DNA of 64,000 bases. Source: an uncultured virus (IMG/VR IMGVR_UViG_3300025708_000562) (lineage: Duplodnaviria > Heunggongvirae > Uroviricota > Caudoviricetes). Below, piece by piece: positions 10,627 through 55,747 of the stretch. Both the position numbers and the translations under genes were made by a program. The DNA is taken from the IMG/VR virus record IMGVR_UViG_3300025708_000562, one strand, 5' to 3'. Under the pieces are notes generated by a model, which was not told where the DNA came from, ran no database searches, and worked only from the letters and a program-made list of their open reading frames with translations. Each line of letters begins with the position of its first letter. Position 1 is the first letter of the stretch.

Positions 10627-11586
10627 GTGAATGTGGCGCGCGTGCGCTCAGGGATTCGTCCGGCACTTAAAGTGCCATATGATGGTGCTCTAAAAGCGTT
10701 TGCATACGCCGGGATGCCGTTCAATACGGCATCCCGCATCTTAGACTCCCTGGGATTTCTGCAGCCGCCCGTTGGAGATAATTCGCTAAAGACGCTCTAT
10801 ACATTTCACCGCCAATCGGCGCGTGATATCAATCCCGATTTCAAATTCGCCCGCGGCTTAGCTGAAAGCTTCGGCATTAATCCCATTTACGAATGGGTAT
10901 CGCGTAGCAAGGCGCATGAGACTACCAATGCGCGTATTGACACCATAATGGATGAGATGCGCCAGCCGCTACTGCGCCGCGCGCTTGATATCCTGTTGTA
11001 TCTAGGATGGTCGCCCGAAGAAGTATCTGAAGCGTTGAATACCAAGATCGACGCCCCGATACGTTGCTGGGATGTCGAGGATGTAACCATCTATCGCGAC
11101 TTCTTCTGGAACACGGAGCTGATGGGCGTTAGCGATTGGGAGCAGTACTTGTCCTGGTGGCAAGAAGCCCCCATGGCATATGCCAATAATCACGTCTTCA
11201 GCATGCTGGATAGCAGTCGCGAAGAGCTGCTATGGATGGCTGGCATAACCGAGGGGATCACTCCGCAACAAATGGCTAAAGCTATGATGATGGAGTGCTA
11301 CATCCAGTTCCGCAAGAACTCGTCATCGAGCAATCCCGACTCGGCGATGATGTTAAAGCATATCGACGCATTCCGCAAACTAGCCATGACCTCTAAGGTG
11401 TTGGGAGGTATGGATGAGGAAAGCAGGGGTGCGGCGAGTGATATTATGCAATCCATCAGCGTGTCCTTCAAGGCCCCCGGGGCGCGTGAGCCTATCTCAA
11501 GGGTGGAGCTAGAGGATGGGCCTGTCACGATAACATCGCGTGAGGCTATCACGCTCAATGAAGACGAATCAGATGCAACATCATGA
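10627..11586 (+). CDS. Hypothetical protein, possible terminase small subunit
   Basis: Lies directly upstream of, and overlaps, the large terminase. Confidence 0.4.
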   Translation: MNVARVRSGIRPALKVPYDGALKAFAYAGMPFNTASRILDSLGFLQPPVGDNSLKTLYTFHRQSARDINPDFKFARGLAESFGINPIYEWVSRSKAHETTNARIDTIMDEMRQPLLRRALDILLYLGWSPEEVSEALNTKIDAPIRCWDVEDVTIYRDFFWNTELMGVSDWEQYLSWWQEAPMAYANNHVFSMLDSSREELLWMAGITEGITPQQMAKAMMMECYIQFRKNSSSSNPDSAMMLKHIDAFRKLAMTSKVLGGMDEESRGAASDIMQSISVSFKAPGAREPISRVELEDGPVTITSREAITLNEDESDATS

Positions 11587-14407
11587 AGTATCGCTGTCCA
11601 AATGGGTTCAATCCATACTAACGCTTGACGGCAAGCCGTATTCCCTGGCGGATAGAGGCTACACCCTGCCGTTCTTCGATAACGGATATTCTGAACTGCT
11701 AATGTGTTGCGCCAGGCAGACAGAGAAAACCGTATCTGTAGAGCAACTCGTTTCACTAGACAACGGACGCCTGATTCGGGCGGGAGACGTGTTAATCGGC
11801 CATCGCCTGGCCGCTCTCGACATGGATCAGCTCAAGGCGTCGCATGGCGAGGTGACGTGGCGCTCTCGGGTTTATCGCAAGCCTTGTATCCGCATCAAGA
11901 CGCGCTTAGGGCTAGAAATGGATATTGCCACCACTCATCCGGTCTTGACATTTAATGGCTGGGTAGAGGGTGGCGAGCTAGTCGTGGGGACGCGTGTTGC
12001 TGCGATGTCGCGTGTTGGCGAATTTACCGGGAGCTATCAGTGCGATGATAATGAGCTGACCATTTTAGCTATGTTGATCGGTGATGGCCACATGCTCTCG
12101 GAGTCGTCAGTAGGGTTCACTCAATCTCCCGGGCCGGCATCCGAGGCCTACCAACAAGCGCTTCGTAATCTGGGAATAGACTATCGCGTTTACAATAAGT
12201 TTGGAACTGATTCGGTTTCGTATCGGCATGCCCCGCCACCGCTAGTGGTTCGTTCGGGGCTGATTGGCAGTCGTTCGTCCACTAAGGTTATCCCAGACTT
12301 CGTGTTCGATTTGTCCAGGGAGCAAACAGCTCTATTTCTAAACAGATTATGGAGCACAGATGGAAGCGTAAAACATAACAGGCCATCAATATACGATTTG
12401 GTTTATGCGTCAATGTCTAAGCTCATGGTGCAGCAAGTCCAGGCCCTGCTATGGAAATTCGGAATCCCGTCTCGCATTAGGGAGAATTGGCCCAATATCT
12501 ACAAGCGGCGTGGAGAGCATAGGGTGGCTTATTTGCTTAGGATCGAAACGATAGAGGGTGTGCACCGCTTTTTGTCGGAGATAGGCGCGATAGGTAAAAG
12601 CGAGGGAATATTGCTTCCCGATCTTACGGTCAGGCACATCAACAACCGCCACACCATCCCCGCTGAAGTCGGCGTAATCATGGGGCAAATATACGACATT
12701 GCCCCATTTAGCGATCGAGACATGCGCAAATGTGCATTACATAAAATAGTTACCAAGCCAATTACGCCACGCAAACTCATGCGCTATGTGGATTATTTCC
12801 GGAGAGGCCTTGACCATCCGCTTATCGATAAACTAGAGCGCATTGCCAAGGCTGATGTCGCCTGGGACTCTATTGTGTCCATAGAGGATCTTGGCAAACT
12901 AGACTGTGTGGACTTTACGGTGTCGCCGCATAACAATTTCATCACCGGCGGGATCGTGACACACAACTCCACCATGTTAGCTGCCATGGCGATGGGCTGG
13001 ATGACGGCGTTCCCCAATTTCAACGTTTTATACGGCTGCCCTGATTTGAAAAAGGTACGTCAGTGGAGCCATGACAAGGTGCGCCCGTTTTTTAGCTCTC
13101 CGAAGATTACGCTAGTCACGGGTGGCGCGCCGATACAGTCCAACGTCGAAGTGAAATCCCTGGCCAACGGTTCAACCCTATATATCCGCAATAGCGACCC
13201 CGATGGAGACAATTTCCGCGGAGTGTCCGTGGGGGCTGTATTGGCAGACGAGGTGCAAGACATGGTCGGCAAGGCCATTATCGTTGCAGAAGAGGCCCTG
13301 TCGCACTCTCCATGGCCGATTAAATTCAAGCGCTATTCGGGGACGCCTAAGAGCCTGGACAATACGATCGAAGCCTTATGGCGGCGTTCTACGCAGACGG
13401 AATGGCTCGTGCGATGCCCGCATTGCAGCAAGAGTGACTCGTGCTACAACAACCTGGGGATTGACAACATATCCCCGGCGGGGTTGATATGCTCGCGGTG
13501 CAAAAACCCCATTGACGCACGCACCGGGCGTTGGGTGCATAGTTATCCTCAGCGGTACTTAAAGGGGTTTAGGATTTCGCAGATCATGGTGCCGTGGACG
13601 GATTTTGCAGAGGTATATTACAACAAGCTAGCCACATACTCCACGGCGCTATTCATGAATGAAGTGCTGGGTATAAGCTACGAGTCTGGCGCTAAATATC
13701 TGACGATGGATGAAGTACAACAAGTCTGCGCCGAATCTGGCGAGTATGACATGACGCTCGAGTTGGATAAGGAGGCTAAATCCCACCGCAGGGTGGCTGG
13801 AGTTGACTGGGGTGTCAGCGCCGAGGGCGGGGCCACCACGGTAGTAACCATTGCGGTATGCATCCGCCCGGATAAGATCAAGATCATCTATTGCCGGCGC
13901 CTCCCTCCAGCTATGCCCCTAGACGAGCAGACAGAGGCCGTGCAGGACATATTGGCTAAATACAAAGTCGACTACGTGTGTGCCGATAAAGGCGCCGCAG
14001 GGGACCGCAACTTGCATCTAGCTCACGTAGTGGGCGCGTCGAATATTCTTCAGGTGCATTTCACCGGCAGCGGGACGTTGACTAAGAAGTTCTTCGAGGA
14101 CATAGCTCAGCTTAACCTAAATCGCGTGATGGCCCTATCGGACTTCCGCACGGAGTTTACACGCAGGCGGCATTTCCTGCTGCCTAAGTGGGAGGTGTGG
14201 GAGCCGTTTGCGCAGGATATGCTTACGCAGATTGTGGAGACGGACAGCGGGGGCAATCTCTTATACAACCACCCCGCGGGGACGTTGGATGACGTTTTGA
14301 TGTCCTTGGTCTATGTAAATGTTGCACGTAAGATGGTTTATGGCATGCCGTTAATCAGCACGATTCCCAATAGCACATTCCTGCAAGCTAAGATCGCGCG
14401 TGATTAG
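11573..14407 (+). CDS. terL: Terminase large subunit (gpA-like) interrupted by an intein
   Basis: Spliced Walker A ARQTEK|ST; Walker B LADEVQD; GTPKS; CPHC..CSRC zinc ribbon; nuclease GVDWG; C-terminal DD motif. Confidence 0.9.
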   Translation: MQHHEVSLSKWVQSILTLDGKPYSLADRGYTLPFFDNGYSELLMCCARQTEKTVSVEQLVSLDNGRLIRAGDVLIGHRLAALDMDQLKASHGEVTWRSRVYRKPCIRIKTRLGLEMDIATTHPVLTFNGWVEGGELVVGTRVAAMSRVGEFTGSYQCDDNELTILAMLIGDGHMLSESSVGFTQSPGPASEAYQQALRNLGIDYRVYNKFGTDSVSYRHAPPPLVVRSGLIGSRSSTKVIPDFVFDLSREQTALFLNRLWSTDGSVKHNRPSIYDLVYASMSKLMVQQVQALLWKFGIPSRIRENWPNIYKRRGEHRVAYLLRIETIEGVHRFLSEIGAIGKSEGILLPDLTVRHINNRHTIPAEVGVIMGQIYDIAPFSDRDMRKCALHKIVTKPITPRKLMRYVDYFRRGLDHPLIDKLERIAKADVAWDSIVSIEDLGKLDCVDFTVSPHNNFITGGIVTHNSTMLAAMAMGWMTAFPNFNVLYGCPDLKKVRQWSHDKVRPFFSSPKITLVTGGAPIQSNVEVKSLANGSTLYIRNSDPDGDNFRGVSVGAVLADEVQDMVGKAIIVAEEALSHSPWPIKFKRYSGTPKSLDNTIEALWRRSTQTEWLVRCPHCSKSDSCYNNLGIDNISPAGLICSRCKNPIDARTGRWVHSYPQRYLKGFRISQIMVPWTDFAEVYYNKLATYSTALFMNEVLGISYESGAKYLTMDEVQQVCAESGEYDMTLELDKEAKSHRRVAGVDWGVSAEGGATTVVTIAVCIRPDKIKIIYCRRLPPAMPLDEQTEAVQDILAKYKVDYVCADKGAAGDRNLHLAHVVGASNILQVHFTGSGTLTKKFFEDIAQLNLNRVMALSDFRTEFTRRRHFLLPKWEVWEPFAQDMLTQIVETDSGGNLLYNHPAGTLDDVLMSLVYVNVARKMVYGMPLISTIPNSTFLQAKIARD
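11729..12967 (+). mobile_element. Intein with LAGLIDADG homing endonuclease (413 aa) in the terminase Walker A
   Basis: Ends IVTHN followed by Ser; block B ..TTHP; LAMLIGDG and FLNRLWSTDG endonuclease motifs. Confidence 0.9.
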
Positions 14408-47744: not shown

Positions 47745-48242
47745 TTATATGCTGACTGGAGGTTCCGCCTCGTGGGCCGCAGCAATATCCTGCAGATCCT
47801 GCGGCCCTATGCCCTCAAGGGCTCCGGAGGCCTGCAGCACGGTAGCAAGCTGCGTAGAGATGTCGTCAACCTTTTCCGTCTGAGCCTTAGCTAGGTCAAG
47901 CGCGGAATCCGCCACGCGCAGCGATTGCTGTAGCAGGTTCTGGTCAATGCTAGGTTCTGGTTCCGCCGCCCCGGGAGCTCCCGCCGGTGCGTTGGCTATC
48001 ATCGCCAGCATATTGGGGTCGATAGGCATACCACCCACGGGAGGCATACCTCCGCCCATTGCCGCGGGGTCCATCGGCGCACCGCCCATCATTGCGGGGT
48101 CCATCGGCATGCCACCCCCCATCATCGCGGGATCCATTGGCATCCCCCCGCCCATTGCGGCAGGGTCCATCGGCATGCCGCCAGCCTGAGCCATCATCAT
48201 CGGATCCTGAGCTACTTTTAGCATACCAGACAAGCGTCCCAT
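47745..48242 (-). CDS. Putative virion protein with GGMPMDPAMM repeats
   Basis: MGRLSGMLKVA leader; about 5 degenerate decapeptide repeats. Confidence 0.6.
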   Translation of the reverse strand: MGRLSGMLKVAQDPMMMAQAGGMPMDPAAMGGGMPMDPAMMGGGMPMDPAMMGGAPMDPAAMGGGMPPVGGMPIDPNMLAMIANAPAGAPGAAEPEPSIDQNLLQQSLRVADSALDLAKAQTEKVDDISTQLATVLQASGALEGIGPQDLQDIAAAHEAEPPVSI

Positions 48243-49720: not shown

Positions 49721-49763
49721 TAAAAAGAACAAGGGGTCGGGGGGCTTGCGCCCCCCTTCCCTT
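49721..49763 (-). terminator. Intrinsic terminator after the Ubl gene
   Basis: GGGGGGC-GCAA-GCCCCCC hairpin with extended stem and T-tract on the minus strand. Confidence 0.7.
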
Positions 49764-49768
49764 GGCGT

Positions 49769-50194
49769 CTAGTTGCCCTTGACCACGGTGGTCAGGGTAA
49801 CGACGTCGCCGTCCCTCAGTTCATATGAGAGGTTGGCGATGCGGTTGTTGACGCGCATCTCGTCCTTGTCTCCCACGGACATACCGGCCTGGCCGAGCGC
49901 ATCCCTCACGGTCCTGCCGCCGTTGAGGGTGATGACCTTCCTCTCGCCAGGGACCCTGGCGACTGTGACGTCGATGTAGTCAGGCATGTTCCCCTTCACC
50001 TTCGCGGAAATGGTGACAATGTCACCGTTGCGGAGTTCGGCGTTCAAGATGCTTGGACGCCCGTTAATCATGACGGAGTCGGACTCGTAGCAGGAGATGC
50101 CTGCGAGCCTGGCGCACTCGCGAACGGTGCAGCCATCCTCGACCATCATGTCCTTCCTCTGTCCTGGGACGCGAGCGATCGTTACGTTCGTCAT
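49769..50194 (-). CDS. Tandem di-ubiquitin-like (ThiS/MoaD beta-grasp) protein
   Basis: Two homologous units (69 and 72 aa): ARVPG...TVR....AG.....(I/V)N......ELR.GD.VT....VKGN. Confidence 0.88.
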   Translation of the reverse strand: MTNVTIARVPGQRKDMMVEDGCTVRECARLAGISCYESDSVMINGRPSILNAELRNGDIVTISAKVKGNMPDYIDVTVARVPGERKVITLNGGRTVRDALGQAGMSVGDKDEMRVNNRIANLSYELRDGDVVTLTTVVKGN

Positions 50195-50224: not shown

Positions 50225-50920
50225 CTACCACTTGGTAGAGACGTAAGAGAATGGATTCAGCCCATAAATAAGCTCGTGTTCTGGACGCTCAAATTTAGAA
50301 GCATCTAGCGACCAACCATGATATCGAATAAACTGCCACAAAGCAATGCCCGCCAGTGTGTACACCGTAGGTCCGACGGTTGTGGTCGCTCCGCATGGTG
50401 ATGCTTCTGCATCATCGTCACTCACTAGAGTGCTGGACCACCGTTCCACCTCTGATGGCATGGCGGGGTTGACTACATACACTCGCGCCAAGTCTGCGCC
50501 CATACGGGTCTCGATCACGCAGCGCGTGTCGAGCTCAGCCTCTATATCAGCCATGATGGTTTTCCGCGACGCCATGGTATCTGTCAAGAGGAAGACATAG
50601 GGAGCCCATGGCTTTTCTACATCGCCTGGAGCAAATCCCATTACGGTATCTATCTCGCAACCCGTTGCGCGCTTGATTACGTCGGCTAAAGCCGCGACCT
50701 TCGCCTGCCCGATATGGCACTGCTCGAAGCACTGATTCGCAATGTTATGCTCAGCAACCACATCGCCATCTATCACGCGAATATGCTCTACCCCTAGCTT
50801 CGCTAGGCCTAGGGCCAGATAGCTACCCGTAGCTCCCGCCCCTATGATGTCTACGCGATCGTTGAACGACCTTGGATCAAACACCGCCAGGTGTCTTGAC
50901 GGATCTATGATGTTTGCCAT
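50225..50920 (-). CDS. E1-like ThiF/MoeB adenylyltransferase
   Basis: IIGAGATGS, DGD.V..HN..NQ, KV.AL, TD...R, ETRMG, candidate catalytic Cys in SPCG. Confidence 0.92.
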   Translation of the reverse strand: MANIIDPSRHLAVFDPRSFNDRVDIIGAGATGSYLALGLAKLGVEHIRVIDGDVVAEHNIANQCFEQCHIGQAKVAALADVIKRATGCEIDTVMGFAPGDVEKPWAPYVFLLTDTMASRKTIMADIEAELDTRCVIETRMGADLARVYVVNPAMPSEVERWSSTLVSDDDAEASPCGATTTVGPTVYTLAGIALWQFIRYHGWSLDASKFERPEHELIYGLNPFSYVSTKW

Positions 50921-51630
50921 TAGTCGAGCCCCGCGTAGTTGTCGCCACCCCATAGCCAGGAGCGCGTGGCCTGCGTGGCGGCGTTATCCGTCGCGCTTTT
51001 GCTGCTGGCTTTGCCGCCCTTAGTTTTCTTGCCCTGATTGAATCCCCCGTATTCGATGCGCTTGACTTTCTCCGCCAGCTGCTGCTTCCAGTATTCAGCG
51101 CGATCCTCTGTGGGGTAGTCAACCTCCCATGGCACATTACGCCACACGCCGTTCAACTCGTAGTTGAAGATCGTGTACTCGCAATGTGTCGGGGCGAAGA
51201 TGCCTCTCAGGAACCACGGGCATCCGTTCCGCCTGAAGATCGTCATCTGTGCTTCATCTTGCGAGCTTGGAGACACACTCCCAAACGGGTGCGTATGCCC
51301 CCAAAACCTGAGCTTGTCGTAGTCGTCGTTTCCTCGCCCCATCAACTCGCGACCCAGCGCAGCCATCGCATCCGCCGACAGCTCTGTCGTGCCAGAGTGG
51401 CACTCCTGCTCGAGCAGGAATATCTCTGTGATTCGATAGTAGTCGGCGACCAATATCTTCTCATCCGAGTACTTGAGCTCGCGTTCGACAAGACCCATAA
51501 ATCCGACTTCGCTTGAAACGTGCCGTGATATCTGCGATAGATCTTCCGCAATTGCCGGCGACACTAGAACCTTAGGCTCGAGCAGAGTGTGAAACACCGG
51601 CGTCGCTTTGTGTGGGACTAGCGTTATCAC
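50920..51630 (-). CDS. JAB/JAMM metallopeptidase
   Basis: EVG...WGHTHP.....PSSQD; TAATG coupling to the E1 gene. Confidence 0.88.
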   Translation of the reverse strand: MITLVPHKATPVFHTLLEPKVLVSPAIAEDLSQISRHVSSEVGFMGLVERELKYSDEKILVADYYRITEIFLLEQECHSGTTELSADAMAALGRELMGRGNDDYDKLRFWGHTHPFGSVSPSSQDEAQMTIFRRNGCPWFLRGIFAPTHCEYTIFNYELNGVWRNVPWEVDYPTEDRAEYWKQQLAEKVKRIEYGGFNQGKKTKGGKASSKSATDNAATQATRSWLWGGDNYAGLD

Positions 51631-54304: not shown

Positions 54305-55747
54305 TTACGAAAGCGTGGGTGGATTTTGCCGCAGGTGCTGTTCAACTGCCTGCCGCGCCGCATTGATGTACACCTTCAACGCCGCAGCCGGGTCAATGAG
54401 CCAGCGGTGCGCTAGCGCTAAAGAGCGCTCATCGTGCGGTATGTTAACGGACATATGACGATCGCTGCCAAGCTCCGCAGTGTAGGTGGGGAGACAAGAT
54501 AGCCCCACCACTTCGGTGTGAGCTTCGCTTTGCCTTATCACTTCGCAATTGATCGGAAGGCTTACCGACATTGCCATGCGGGTTGGCTCCGCCCCGTCAG
54601 GCTGCGCTATTTCGATCTCAACGTCACCAGCGTCAACCACCATCATGGGGCGCATGTTGTCCGATCGGGACGATGGCGCTGTGGTACGCATTGCTATGCC
54701 TCTGAAGTGATCGCTATCGCACTCGCCAAGCCGTGTCGCGAATTCAGCTACGTATTTCTCAAGGTTGGGTTCTATGTGCTCTATCTCGCTAATGGCGCAT
54801 GAGTTGCTCGCTAAGTTAAGAGTTACCCTGCGCAATTGCGCTAGCAATTCTTCCCTGCGTGCAATCATGTCATGCTTAGTCCTGTCAAGCGCTTCCGACA
54901 TACCAGGAGCCAGCCTGGATGCGACTACCGCGGGGGGGACATCACACCGATCTCGATCGTGGCCGATCTTCGCTATGCGTTCCTGAAAGATATACTCGCC
55001 ATAAGTTGTTATGGCATCACGTACATCCGAACGCACCGCTGCCAACGCCACGGGGGTGGGTGGTGTATCTGAAGAGCTGAACACAGCGGGGCCAGCATCC
55101 ATGCCTATCAGCACCACGTTGTCCAGCGCATAGGCCAACACTGCCGTATCTGCTCCCTCGACCGCATTGATGCGGTGATTGTCATCCGTCAGCGCATAGC
55201 CGCCACTATTTGTCGCCTTGATCTGCACTAGCGGCACGGACAAGTCCTCCCCGCCTGGCGTAGATACGACGCGATGATGTGACACGCGATGCTCGCCATA
55301 CGGCACGTGCAGAAGTATGACCAGGGCTTCGCTGTCAACCCGCTCGCGAATAATGCGCGCCACATCCGCCATGGGGAAGACTGGCTGGGTGAGATATGGG
55401 CGTAACTCGGGAACGGTCTCTTGCAGCTGATACGTATTGAGGCAGCTCACGCTACATGATGGGGCGTCGATAACCCTCCACACTCCATCGTCACAGCGCT
55501 TCGCCCACGCCGTGCTAGCTCCCATCCCTGCACCGCGTATCCTGCGTACTCCATCTAACCCATTGAGGAGCACGACTGTGTTCATTGCTGCCCTGAGCGT
55601 TAACCCAATATCGCTATACCACTCAGACCACGCATTTCTGGCGTTGGTGACCGACCCGAAGATCGGAACCGTCGATCCATCTGGCGCTAGATAACGCGTC
55701 TTCGTATACCTAGATCGCGTCATCCCTACAATGGGTGTTGATGCCAT
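54305..55747 (-). CDS. Hypothetical protein with central coiled coil, in the Ubl locus
   Basis: 480-aa ORF coupled to the E2-like genes. Confidence 0.55.
   Translation of the reverse strand: MASTPIVGMTRSRYTKTRYLAPDGSTVPIFGSVTNARNAWSEWYSDIGLTLRAAMNTVVLLNGLDGVRRIRGAGMGASTAWAKRCDDGVWRVIDAPSCSVSCLNTYQLQETVPELRPYLTQPVFPMADVARIIRERVDSEALVILLHVPYGEHRVSHHRVVSTPGGEDLSVPLVQIKATNSGGYALTDDNHRINAVEGADTAVLAYALDNVVLIGMDAGPAVFSSSDTPPTPVALAAVRSDVRDAITTYGEYIFQERIAKIGHDRDRCDVPPAVVASRLAPGMSEALDRTKHDMIARREELLAQLRRVTLNLASNSCAISEIEHIEPNLEKYVAEFATRLGECDSDHFRGIAMRTTAPSSRSDNMRPMMVVDAGDVEIEIAQPDGAEPTRMAMSVSLPINCEVIRQSEAHTEVVGLSCLPTYTAELGSDRHMSVNIPHDERSLALAHRWLIDPAAALKVYINAARQAVEQHLRQNPPTLS

Follow-up and report, generated by a model that had tools for sequence, protein, structure and literature searches.

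Tandem ubiquitin-like (Ubl) proteins, in which beta-grasp units follow one another head to tail, include the eukaryotic polyubiquitins (UBI4, UBB, UBC), whose C-terminal caps vary, e.g., Asn in yeast UBI4, and several bacterial families. Bacterial Ubl conjugation has been characterized as host defense (Bil, CBASS Cap2) or has an unsettled role (Bub). The resemblance of bacterial tandem Ubls to polyubiquitin was already remarked in 2006 (Iyer, Burroughs, Aravind 2006; PMC1779556), and the multi-beta-grasp Ubls of the Bil and Bub systems were described in 2024, the Bub Ubl3 proteins acting as intact Ca2+-dependent filaments (PMC11601603). In Bil, the JAB peptidase BilC cuts the E. aridi BilA at Gly97/Ala98, and uncut BilA is not adenylated (bioRxiv 10.1101/2023.09.26.559546). 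We analyzed a two-unit Ubl protein (di-Ubl) encoded in a 64,000-nucleotide stretch of DNA (hereafter, the window) from an uncultured virus of the Caudoviricetes (IMG/VR record IMGVR_UViG_3300025708_000562), where it is the last gene of an operon that also encodes two E2-like proteins, a JAB peptidase and an E1. Sequence conservation and structural modeling support the view that the di-Ubl is a polyubiquitin-like precursor, with the JAB as the likely processing enzyme.

The phage system shares with polyubiquitin the linker-free head-to-tail beta-grasp units with a tail motif on each, the short variable residues after the last unit in many members, the often near-identical sister units, and a dedicated peptidase gene at hand. 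It differs in that its units belong to the ThiS/SAMP2 sequence clade and end in K-G-N rather than R-G-G, that the two units of the window are only about 45% identical, short of near-identity, and that the genes are phage-borne, the peptidase being a JAB from the same operon. With Bil (BilABCD), the system shares the four parts (Ubl, E2, JAB and E1), the multi-beta-grasp Ubls that are common there, and a precedent for JAB pre-processing of the Ubl C-terminus. However, the Bil E1 consists of an inactive and an active adenylation domain and a Cys domain (catalytic C417), whereas the E1 of the window is a single-domain protein of 231-242 amino acids; the Bil E2 motif is CEHH, as opposed to P-H…C-x-G in the E2-like proteins of the window; the residues after the Gly are absent or non-conserved in Bil, whereas here a residue is conserved (Asn in 235 of 277 unit ends); and Bil is a host anti-phage defense, whereas this operon resides in a phage genome. 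Among the PADLOC models, none specific to Bil matched, and only generic E1-E2 and JAB models scored. The polyUbl operons of 2006 (row 6e) likewise combine two or three tandem Ub-like domains with E1, JAB and E2-like genes but have JAB and E1 fused, an E2/RWD-like protein that is inactive, and a metal-binding protein, as opposed to the separate JAB and E1 and the Cys-keeping E2-like proteins found here.

Other described systems resemble the phage operon in single features. MccB (microcin C; substrate MccA) and PaaA, E1-like enzymes of the pathways for peptides that are made on ribosomes and modified after translation, share the E1 fold, and MccB adenylates a C-terminal Asn; in the window, the candidate substrate, as encoded, ends in Asn and the E1 is ThiF-like, and the residues that MccB tolerates in vitro in place of Asn (Ala, Gly, Ser and Thr) include both alternatives, Ala and Gly, at the third motif position of the family. 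Unlike the phage system, MccB acts on a heptapeptide, yields a phosphoramidate antibiotic, and has no E2 or JAB. In the archaeal SAMP2/UbaA/JAMM1 system, too, the beta-grasp modifier is small and goes together with a JAMM protease and an E1 of small size, but SAMPs end in Gly-Gly, as opposed to Gly-Asn in the phage units; SAMPs are single units, and their system is not known to include an E2. The match to the ThiS sulfur carriers is also found, but with Gly-Asn instead of Gly-Gly ends and with E2-like and JAB partners. ISG15 and FAT10 share the two-domain fold; their first domains are not known to carry a conjugation tail, and in the window both domains carry VKGN. Of the PRTRC models (NCBIfam TIGR03734-03742), only PRTRC_ThiF scored, with 33 bits against a cut-off of 144.75, and the other five proteins gave no match. 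The system belongs to none of Bil, row 6e/Multiubiquitin, PRTRC and the sulfur carriers. The family is set apart by its ThiS/SAMP2-like clade, the separate small E1 with an invariant Cys187 and the P-H…C-x-G E2-like proteins, and further by the motif on every unit, the conserved Asn and the phage setting. A literature search, with subscription journals and supplements outside its scope, found no phage-encoded E1/E2/JAB/poly-Ubl operon and no Gly-Asn-ended Ubl family.

The di-Ubl and its family

An earlier note, made from the sequence alone, described the open reading frame (ORF) as two homologous units of 69 and 72 amino acids, each ending in VKGN. The coordinates and unit lengths are as it had them (Table 1), and the motif indeed occupies residues 66-69 and 138-141. 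The two units align without gaps with 31 identities in 67 positions (46%; BLASTP E = 6e-20), and their homology far exceeds chance. An AlphaFold2 model computed from 27 family sequences consists of two beta-grasp domains with a mean pLDDT (predicted local distance difference test) of 88.3, with dips to 69 in the junction block 61-70 and to 42 at the last residue; given the predicted template modeling score (pTM) of 0.52, the mutual orientation of the domains is not fixed. A Foldseek search of the PDB started with this model brings up first the two-domain chains of ISG15, linear di-ubiquitin, polyubiquitin and FAT10 (best E = 9.1e-7; 92 matches at E<=0.001). The best-matching sequence families of the units are ThiS, MoaD, SAMP2 and TGS: unit 2 matches Pfam ThiS with 25.2 bits (cut-off 22.5) and TGS with 33.7 bits, and the best sequence relative of solved structure is SAMP2 (5lda_B, E = 8.4e-5). 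Split, single-unit versions of the window Ubl were not found in a short-length search.

Five proteins are close relatives of the di-Ubl at E<=0.001. Four of these are full-length two-unit proteins, 60-97% identical to it, in which the AKVKGNM junction is invariant and the VKGN end is kept while the remainder of unit 1 varies (unit 1 of the window protein shares 54-94% identity with its counterparts in the close relatives, and unit 2 shares 66-100%). The fifth (P0004, 117 amino acids) keeps the junction but diverges past the middle of unit 2 and lacks the VKGN end. Two single-unit relatives, P0090 and P0154, start with MPDF and MPDE, respectively, similarly to unit 2.

A profile search of 1.84 billion representatives identifies 462 proteins (clusters) at E<=0.001, 75 of them at 1e-10. 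The family counts given here refer to 155 sequences, namely the best 150 of the 462 together with the window protein and four close relatives, these last not being independent sequences. Segmentation with a unit profile matched 153 of the 155 and delineated 307 units, with one unit in 39 proteins, two in 81, three in 26 and four in 7. For 162 of 255 units, the best match is a sister unit of the same protein, as is the case in polyubiquitin. The identity between sister units reaches 100%; it is at least 90% in 6 of the 109 multi-unit proteins and below 50% in 40, which puts the window units at the divergent end of the family range, and some Ubls consist of three or four units that are 62-100% identical. 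At 119 of 141 internal junctions, only 0-3 residues separate the motif from the next unit. In a Pfam search with 27 family members, 14 matched ThiS and none matched Multiubiquitin (PF14452) or Prok_Ub. The nearest ESM Atlas clusters are 86-100% viral, although few of their members carry a taxon. The family appears to be large and mostly metagenomic and viral. A tblastn search with three family Ubls against 50,697 GenBank phage records gave no match, and neither did a comparison of the operon with GenBank phages at the DNA level; a locus scan with a narrower family profile found nothing in viral contigs, the loci coming from genome and metagenome contigs.

For 30 loci that were fetched and annotated with profiles for E1, JAB, the E2-like domain and the Ubl unit, the E1 gene adjoins the Ubl gene in 21, the remaining 9 being contigs of at most 2.1 kb that end first. 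A total of 14 loci contain the full set of E2-like, JAB, E1 and Ubl genes (with L004/L005 and L008/L028 as pairs of duplicates), and the loci include contigs labeled as metagenome-assembled genomes (MAGs) of Flavobacteriaceae, Saccharibacteria and Thermoanaerobaculia. Several short metagenome contigs (L009, L020, L021, L014) encode two adjacent multi-unit Ubls or one three-unit Ubl with near-identical units (MDFITVKVGKLPG…KKIKGN / ADHIVVKVG…), i.e., arrays of tags.

Probable processing of the tandem protein

The tail motif, xG[N/A/G], is kept at 144 of 154 family junctions, including 48 of the 57 that join units with less than 50% identity. Several copies of one modifier in a chain make sense mainly if they are separated by cutting. 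A further argument comes from relatives in which the only motif is internal (L006:6983-7597; L008:6010-6984, identical to L028; L025:4577-5245), found in contigs labeled as Saccharibacteria MAGs and in metagenome contigs. In these proteins, a unit ending in KKIKGN is followed by a divergent, motif-less beta-grasp domain and a helical acidic tail of 60-140 amino acids, a layout like that of ubiquitin-fusion proteins, in which the C-terminal part would come free together with the tag. Because an E1 needs a free carboxylate, such proteins could obtain a free end only by endoproteolysis.

The JAB of the window contains an intact JAMM motif (E41…H112-x-H114-x7-S122-x2-D125) that is invariant in all five aligned homologs. 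Its matches to PADLOC JAB models are weak (best E = 4.8e-4), a Pfam scan gave no match, and a search of its profile against solved structures returned no sequence relative at E<=1 beyond chance-level rows. A model of the complex of the JAB, Zn and the di-Ubl scores 0.79, compared to 0.01 for the best of three controls; 116 of 157 solved complexes and 2 of 215 mismatched pairs reach this mark. Between runs, at least 96% of the contacts agree, and the partner pLDDT is at least 89. In the model, the interface comprises residues 41-45, 80-97 and 104-125 of the JAB (including E41, H112, H114, S122 and D125) and, on the di-Ubl side, the body of unit 1 and the junction residues 61-75, with the C-terminal tail outside. 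JAMM-Ubl complexes have been solved, and part of this result may reflect likeness to them.

These observations support the assignment of the internal motifs as processing sites, in agreement with that part of the earlier note in which the di-Ubl was taken for a JAB-processed precursor, and cleavage of the junction by the JAB, at whichever exact bond, is likely. Self-cleavage driven by Asn, via an intein-like succinimide at the junction, was also considered and was set aside given that a dedicated JAB is always present.

The terminal residue of the putative mature modifier

With 30 units left out because their profile match stopped short of the end, 277 unit ends could be scored, and these are xGN in 235 cases, xGA in 20 and xGG in 22. 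The distribution is 112 xGN (90 of them KGN), 11 xGA and 13 xGG among 136 terminal ends, and 123, 9 and 9, respectively, among 141 internal ends. Past the motif, the terminal units have no residue in 65 cases, one in 45, two in 9, three in 6, four or five in 2 and more than six in 9. The one-residue tails are variable (K in 10, N in 9, R in 5, A and S in 4 each, and others), and so is the residue that follows an internal motif (A in 32, Q in 23, S in 20, T in 13, M in 12, and others). In none of the 153 family proteins is the motif Gly the last residue. The third motif residue is thus near-invariantly Asn, otherwise Ala or Gly, and the variable, cap-like residues start only after it. In three independent profile alignments, G140 falls on the penultimate position of the ThiS models (75 of 76 in Pfam, 69 of 70 in NCBIfam) and, in the third, of SAMP2 (residue 68 of 69 in 5lda_B) and of E. 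coli ThiS (65 of 66; 1f0z, E = 0.099), which places the Asn at the terminal, activated Gly position of ThiS and SAMP2. The conservation pattern indicates that the Asn is no disposable cap but serves either as the mature end or as an obligatory P1' residue. The proposal of the earlier note that the Gly is merely masked by the Asn does not agree with this pattern.

A sister subfamily provides a comparison. In IMG/VR contigs of 25-81 kb (L033-L038), two-unit Ubls have KGG at every unit end, including the internal one, followed by a one-residue cap, and KLG replaces the (V/L)PG hairpin motif. All six loci have the E2-JAB-E1-Ubl operon type, with L035 and L036 forming a duplicate pair. The genes of L033 stand in a rearranged order, with an additional single beta-grasp ORF before the E1 gene. 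Residues such as K and R occur as caps in both groups, after KGN in one and after KGG in the other. Close to the catalytic residues, the JABs of 15 KGN-type and 5 KGG-type loci differ consistently at G43/S, G111/W, P121/W and Q124/T, and the smaller residues around the KGN-type center would leave room for Asn. The E1s (18 KGN-type and 5 KGG-type) differ, including next to D125 and C187, at T124/V, E148/D, S185/E and G188/T.

Enzymes with the E1 fold are not confined to Gly. MccB acts on MccA, whose C-terminal Asn it adenylates, and tolerates Ala, Gly, Ser and Thr in the place of that Asn (PMC11118369), and Cap2 conjugates cGAS via a C-terminal Gly or Ala (PMC10097602). Among the cleavage models, mature Gly-Asn ends are only somewhat favored over a cut after the Gly, given that no characterized JAMM or E1 that acts on a beta-grasp protein uses Asn.

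A possible mechanism

The sequences themselves show the repeat, the motifs and an operon that is conserved, from which we infer a course of cleavage at a particular position, activation, conjugation and targeting. The JAB would bind unit 1 and cut the KGN/M junction, releasing two different beta-grasp modifiers that are about 45% identical. The conserved Asn would remain as the C-terminal residue, the positional equivalent of ubiquitin Gly76 or of the last Gly of ThiS. With Asn as the mature end, unit 2 of the window would need no trimming, and relatives with 1-3 extra residues after the Asn would be trimmed there. The small single-domain E1 would then adenylate the Asn C-terminus, and the invariant Cys187 of the E1 and C348/C367 of the E2-like proteins would carry the modifier to phage or host targets. 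As a whole, this scheme, a two-unit, polyubiquitin-style precursor of a phage Ubl conjugation system with a JAB cut after Asn, activation and transfer, is a realistic possibility with somewhat less than an even chance of being correct. Counting against it, the contact list of the complex model does not single out the scissile bond, and the assignment of the E2s leans on a model with a pLDDT of 65 and on sub-threshold fold scores. A more far-reaching version can be considered, in which the minimal E1 adenylates the Asn carboxylate and, as in MccB, the Asn side chain may close to a C-terminal succinimide; this would be a further activated species, which might be attacked and opened by Cys187, by the cysteines of the E2s or by an amine of the target. 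The tags would then be the first beta-grasp Ubls activated at a C-terminal Asn, with a JAB cut after Asn and a new conjugation chemistry, a proposal that we consider tentative and, on balance, doubtful.

Alternative interpretations

The same precursor could instead be cut by the JAB after the Gly at both sites (KG/N), with the Asn as an obligatory cap or P1' determinant and with modifiers ending in Lys-Gly. The trimming precedent from Bil that the earlier note invoked is real, and the cut of E. aridi BilA described above is a direct precedent. All characterized beta-grasp modifiers are activated at Gly (PMC11118369). The evidence on processing and JAB binding fits a KG/N cut equally well. BilC takes off a single residue after Gly, and the 20 xGA ends of the family look like the end of E. 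aridi BilA (…AG/A). To our knowledge, every known case of JAMM-type Ubl processing and of E1-dependent beta-grasp conjugation uses Gly at the cut or activated position, and these points weigh against a mature Gly-Asn end, as does the possibility that the differences between KGN-type and KGG-type enzymes, a comparison of two clades only, may be drift. However, the Asn is near-invariant in this family, whereas the residues after Gly in Type II BilA are reported to be non-conserved (bioRxiv 10.1101/2023.09.26.559546), and no family protein ends at the Gly, whereas for Type I BilA overhangs are present in only 12 aligned homologs and most proteins appear to end at Gly (bioRxiv 10.1101/2023.09.04.556158). 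A KG/N cut would also split the two glycines of KGG in the sister subfamily, and in the profile alignments the terminal position of ThiS and SAMP2 falls to Asn rather than to Gly. Altogether, a cut after Gly appears to be a serious alternative, albeit with a chance of being correct of only a little over one quarter in our estimation.

Cleavage itself could be dispensed with if the di-Ubl is an uncut two-domain modifier of the kind of ISG15, FAT10 or Type I BilA, with only the C-terminal tail activated and the internal VKGN a relic of duplication. Several observations favor such a protein over a precursor: ISG15 and FAT10 are among the top structural matches; the window units are so divergent that a fixed two-domain protein would fit, too, and each is conserved as its own ortholog; and about 10 of the 154 junctions lack the motif, which implies uncut, ISG15-like forms within the family. 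Conversely, the AKVKGNM junction is invariant in the clade while unit 1 is otherwise variable, most junctions between divergent units have kept the motif, the relatives with only an internal motif cannot work uncut, and it is the junction rather than the C-terminal tail that lies in the JAB groove of the complex model, so that an uncut modifier is unlikely. Much less probable still is that no protein tag is made at all and that the units are a ThiS/MoaD-like pair of sulfur carriers or a non-covalent scaffold, with free unit 2 perhaps arising by internal initiation at M70. The best sequence families (ThiS, MoaD, SAMP2 and TGS) and the minimal, ThiF-size E1 without a separate Cys domain are in line with a sulfur carrier, but in 14 loci the Ubl has a JAB and E2-like proteins, whose Cys is conserved, as its fixed partners, and no sulfur-transfer family is found among the 11 neighboring ORFs scanned. 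As for internal initiation, the Lys-Gly codons form a GAAGGGG stretch a few bases 5' of the Met70 ATG (window 49985-50003, minus strand) that resembles a Shine-Dalgarno sequence, and separate translation of unit 2 could be possible; given, however, that only 12 of 141 internal junctions have Met as the residue after the motif, this cannot be the general route of the family.

The operon and its genomic context

All five genes of the operon are co-oriented, in the order E2-like, E2-like, JAB, E1 and di-Ubl (Table 1). By direct folding, the hairpin that follows the di-Ubl gene has an energy of -32.5 kcal/mol (z = -4.2) that was matched by none of 200 shuffles, although it is absent from the list produced by a simple consensus terminator scan.

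Table 1. Features of the di-Ubl operon and its surroundings (positions in the window)
Feature	Position	Strand	Description
Di-Ubl ORF	49769..50194	-	141 amino acids, ATG start, TAG stop; two beta-grasp units head to tail
Unit 1	49988..50194	-	residues 1-69, end VKGN
Unit 2	49772..49987	-	residues 70-141, start MPDYI, end VKGN followed by TAG
Internal junction V66-K67-G68-N69/M70	49985..49999	-	proposed processing site; invariant in 5/5 sequences
C-terminal V138-K139-G140-N141	49772..49783	-	end of unit 2
G+C-rich hairpin with U-run	49721..49764	-	directly 3' of the di-Ubl stop; probable operon terminator
E1-like adenylating enzyme, ThiF family, single domain	50225..50953	-	Pfam ThiF, E = 9.2e-16
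JAB/JAMM metallopeptidase	50920..51630	-	E41, H112xH114, S122, D125 (E..HxHx7Sx2D)
E2-like protein, 431 amino acids	51730..53025	-	coiled coil and C-terminal UBC-like domain, P339-H340..C348-x-G350
Second, very divergent E2-like paralog, 424 amino acids	53022..54296	-	P358-H359..C367-x-G369; stop overlaps next start (ATGA)
480-amino acid protein, function unassigned	54305..55747	-	co-oriented, immediately upstream; same place in L001; candidate member only
Zinc-ribbon-like protein, 150 amino acids	55764..56216	-	head of the gene string; sub-threshold Pfam Lar_restr_allev and DZR; candidate member only

The E1 is 242 amino acids long as called and probably 231, with one ThiF domain: M12 is the likely true start, where the homologs begin, and its ATG overlaps the stop codon of the JAB gene (TAATG). 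In the loci with a complete E1 gene, the protein has about 216-290 amino acids (longest-ORF calls). Residues G38xG40..G43, D62, D125, R150 and C187 are invariant in 10 of 10 homologs. The best sequence match of solved structure is PaaA (E = 1e-6), which covers the nucleotide-binding region only. A search of GenBank phages with the window E1 matched 14 records, with no Salmonella or Vibrio phage among them. An E1 with 36% identity to that of the window is encoded, in particular, by Xanthomonas and Erwinia jumbo phages (e.g., Xanthomonas phage PhiXhv-12, L002). These loci were not accepted as the same system given their different neighborhood and the lack of a recognizable adjacent Ubl of the family. 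In PhiXhv-12 (record positions 140754-145004), the E1 gene directly follows that of an 892-amino acid Cys-rich protein, in which an H-P-H…C-L-G stretch resembling the E2 motif can be discerned by eye.

The 431-amino acid protein is the canonical E2 of the operon family, with BLAST E values of 1e-11 to 1e-20 to the E2s of other loci. The 424-amino acid protein is 29% identical to it over 51 amino acids (E = 9e-5) and is matched by the E2-like profile built from the operon family; the block common to both, P-H…G..C-x-G-N…S-A-N..D, is invariant in six of six aligned homologs. A model of the C-terminal half of the 431-amino acid protein is mediocre (pLDDT 65). In a Foldseek search with this model, all rows shown are E2 or ubiquitin E2 variant (UEV) chains (UFC1, Cdc34, Ubc13, UBE2S and others), with a best E of 3.3e-3 and none at 0.001. 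With VIA-align, which does not depend on Foldseek, the top match is Mms2 from an UBC13-Mms2 entry (Z = 7.9, root-mean-square deviation 3.7, 122 aligned residues), but E2/UEV folds appear only at ranks 1, 2, 12 and 43, all with Z below 8, and most other rows are coiled-coil matches to the N-terminal helix. We assign both proteins as E2-like with moderate confidence.

Two E2-like genes are present only in the window (with its near-copy L001) and in L017, a 32-kb metagenome contig that carries, one after another, two E2-like genes, a JAB gene, an E1 gene, a Ubl gene with one unit and a separate Ubl gene with two (L017:1790-7405). Each E2 of L017 has the other among its closest matches (E = 4e-74), with one single-E2 locus marginally better against one of them. 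Given this mutual closeness, and with the 424-amino acid protein of the window a distant offshoot, the E2 duplications appear to be independent. Furthermore, L010 combines a two-unit Ubl with a single E2, and Ubls with three or four units exist, so that one modifier for each E2, as the earlier note had suggested, is not a rule in this family, although it may apply to this phage.

The window is phage DNA. It encodes a terminase large subunit, major head protein, head maturation protease and DnaB-like helicase, as well as thymidylate synthase, ligase, a Sak4-like protein and exonuclease. A 139,828-bp IMG/VR contig encodes a Ubl that is 99% identical to that of the window, in an identical gene order. 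The terminase ORF (window 11540-14407, plus strand) encodes 955 amino acids, of which only residues ~460-930 match the terminase, the N-terminal ~450 residues having no assigned function. In a 165-amino acid ORF without a family match (window 47745-48242, minus strand), the N-terminal half contains a series of GGMPMDPA(A/M)M repeats. For the 480-amino acid protein upstream of the operon, no Pfam, PADLOC or NCBIfam family and no Atlas match were found; its similarity to the PHROG baseplate hub (E = 0.0015) was judged to be noise.

Implications

In this locus, a complete set of Ubl conjugation genes sits in a phage, and the family is mostly viral by its Atlas clusters and IMG/VR loci. The tags may be directed at host defense proteins, at virion proteins of the phage or at replication factors. 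Should the tandem units be separated by cleavage, the polyubiquitin-style gene organization would not be a eukaryotic invention but would recur in phages that carry a peptidase of their own. If the conserved Asn is the activated residue, these proteins would be an exception to the C-terminal-Gly rule of beta-grasp modifiers, and a new chemistry, fed by a polyubiquitin-style polyprotein, would operate in hundreds of mostly viral clusters.

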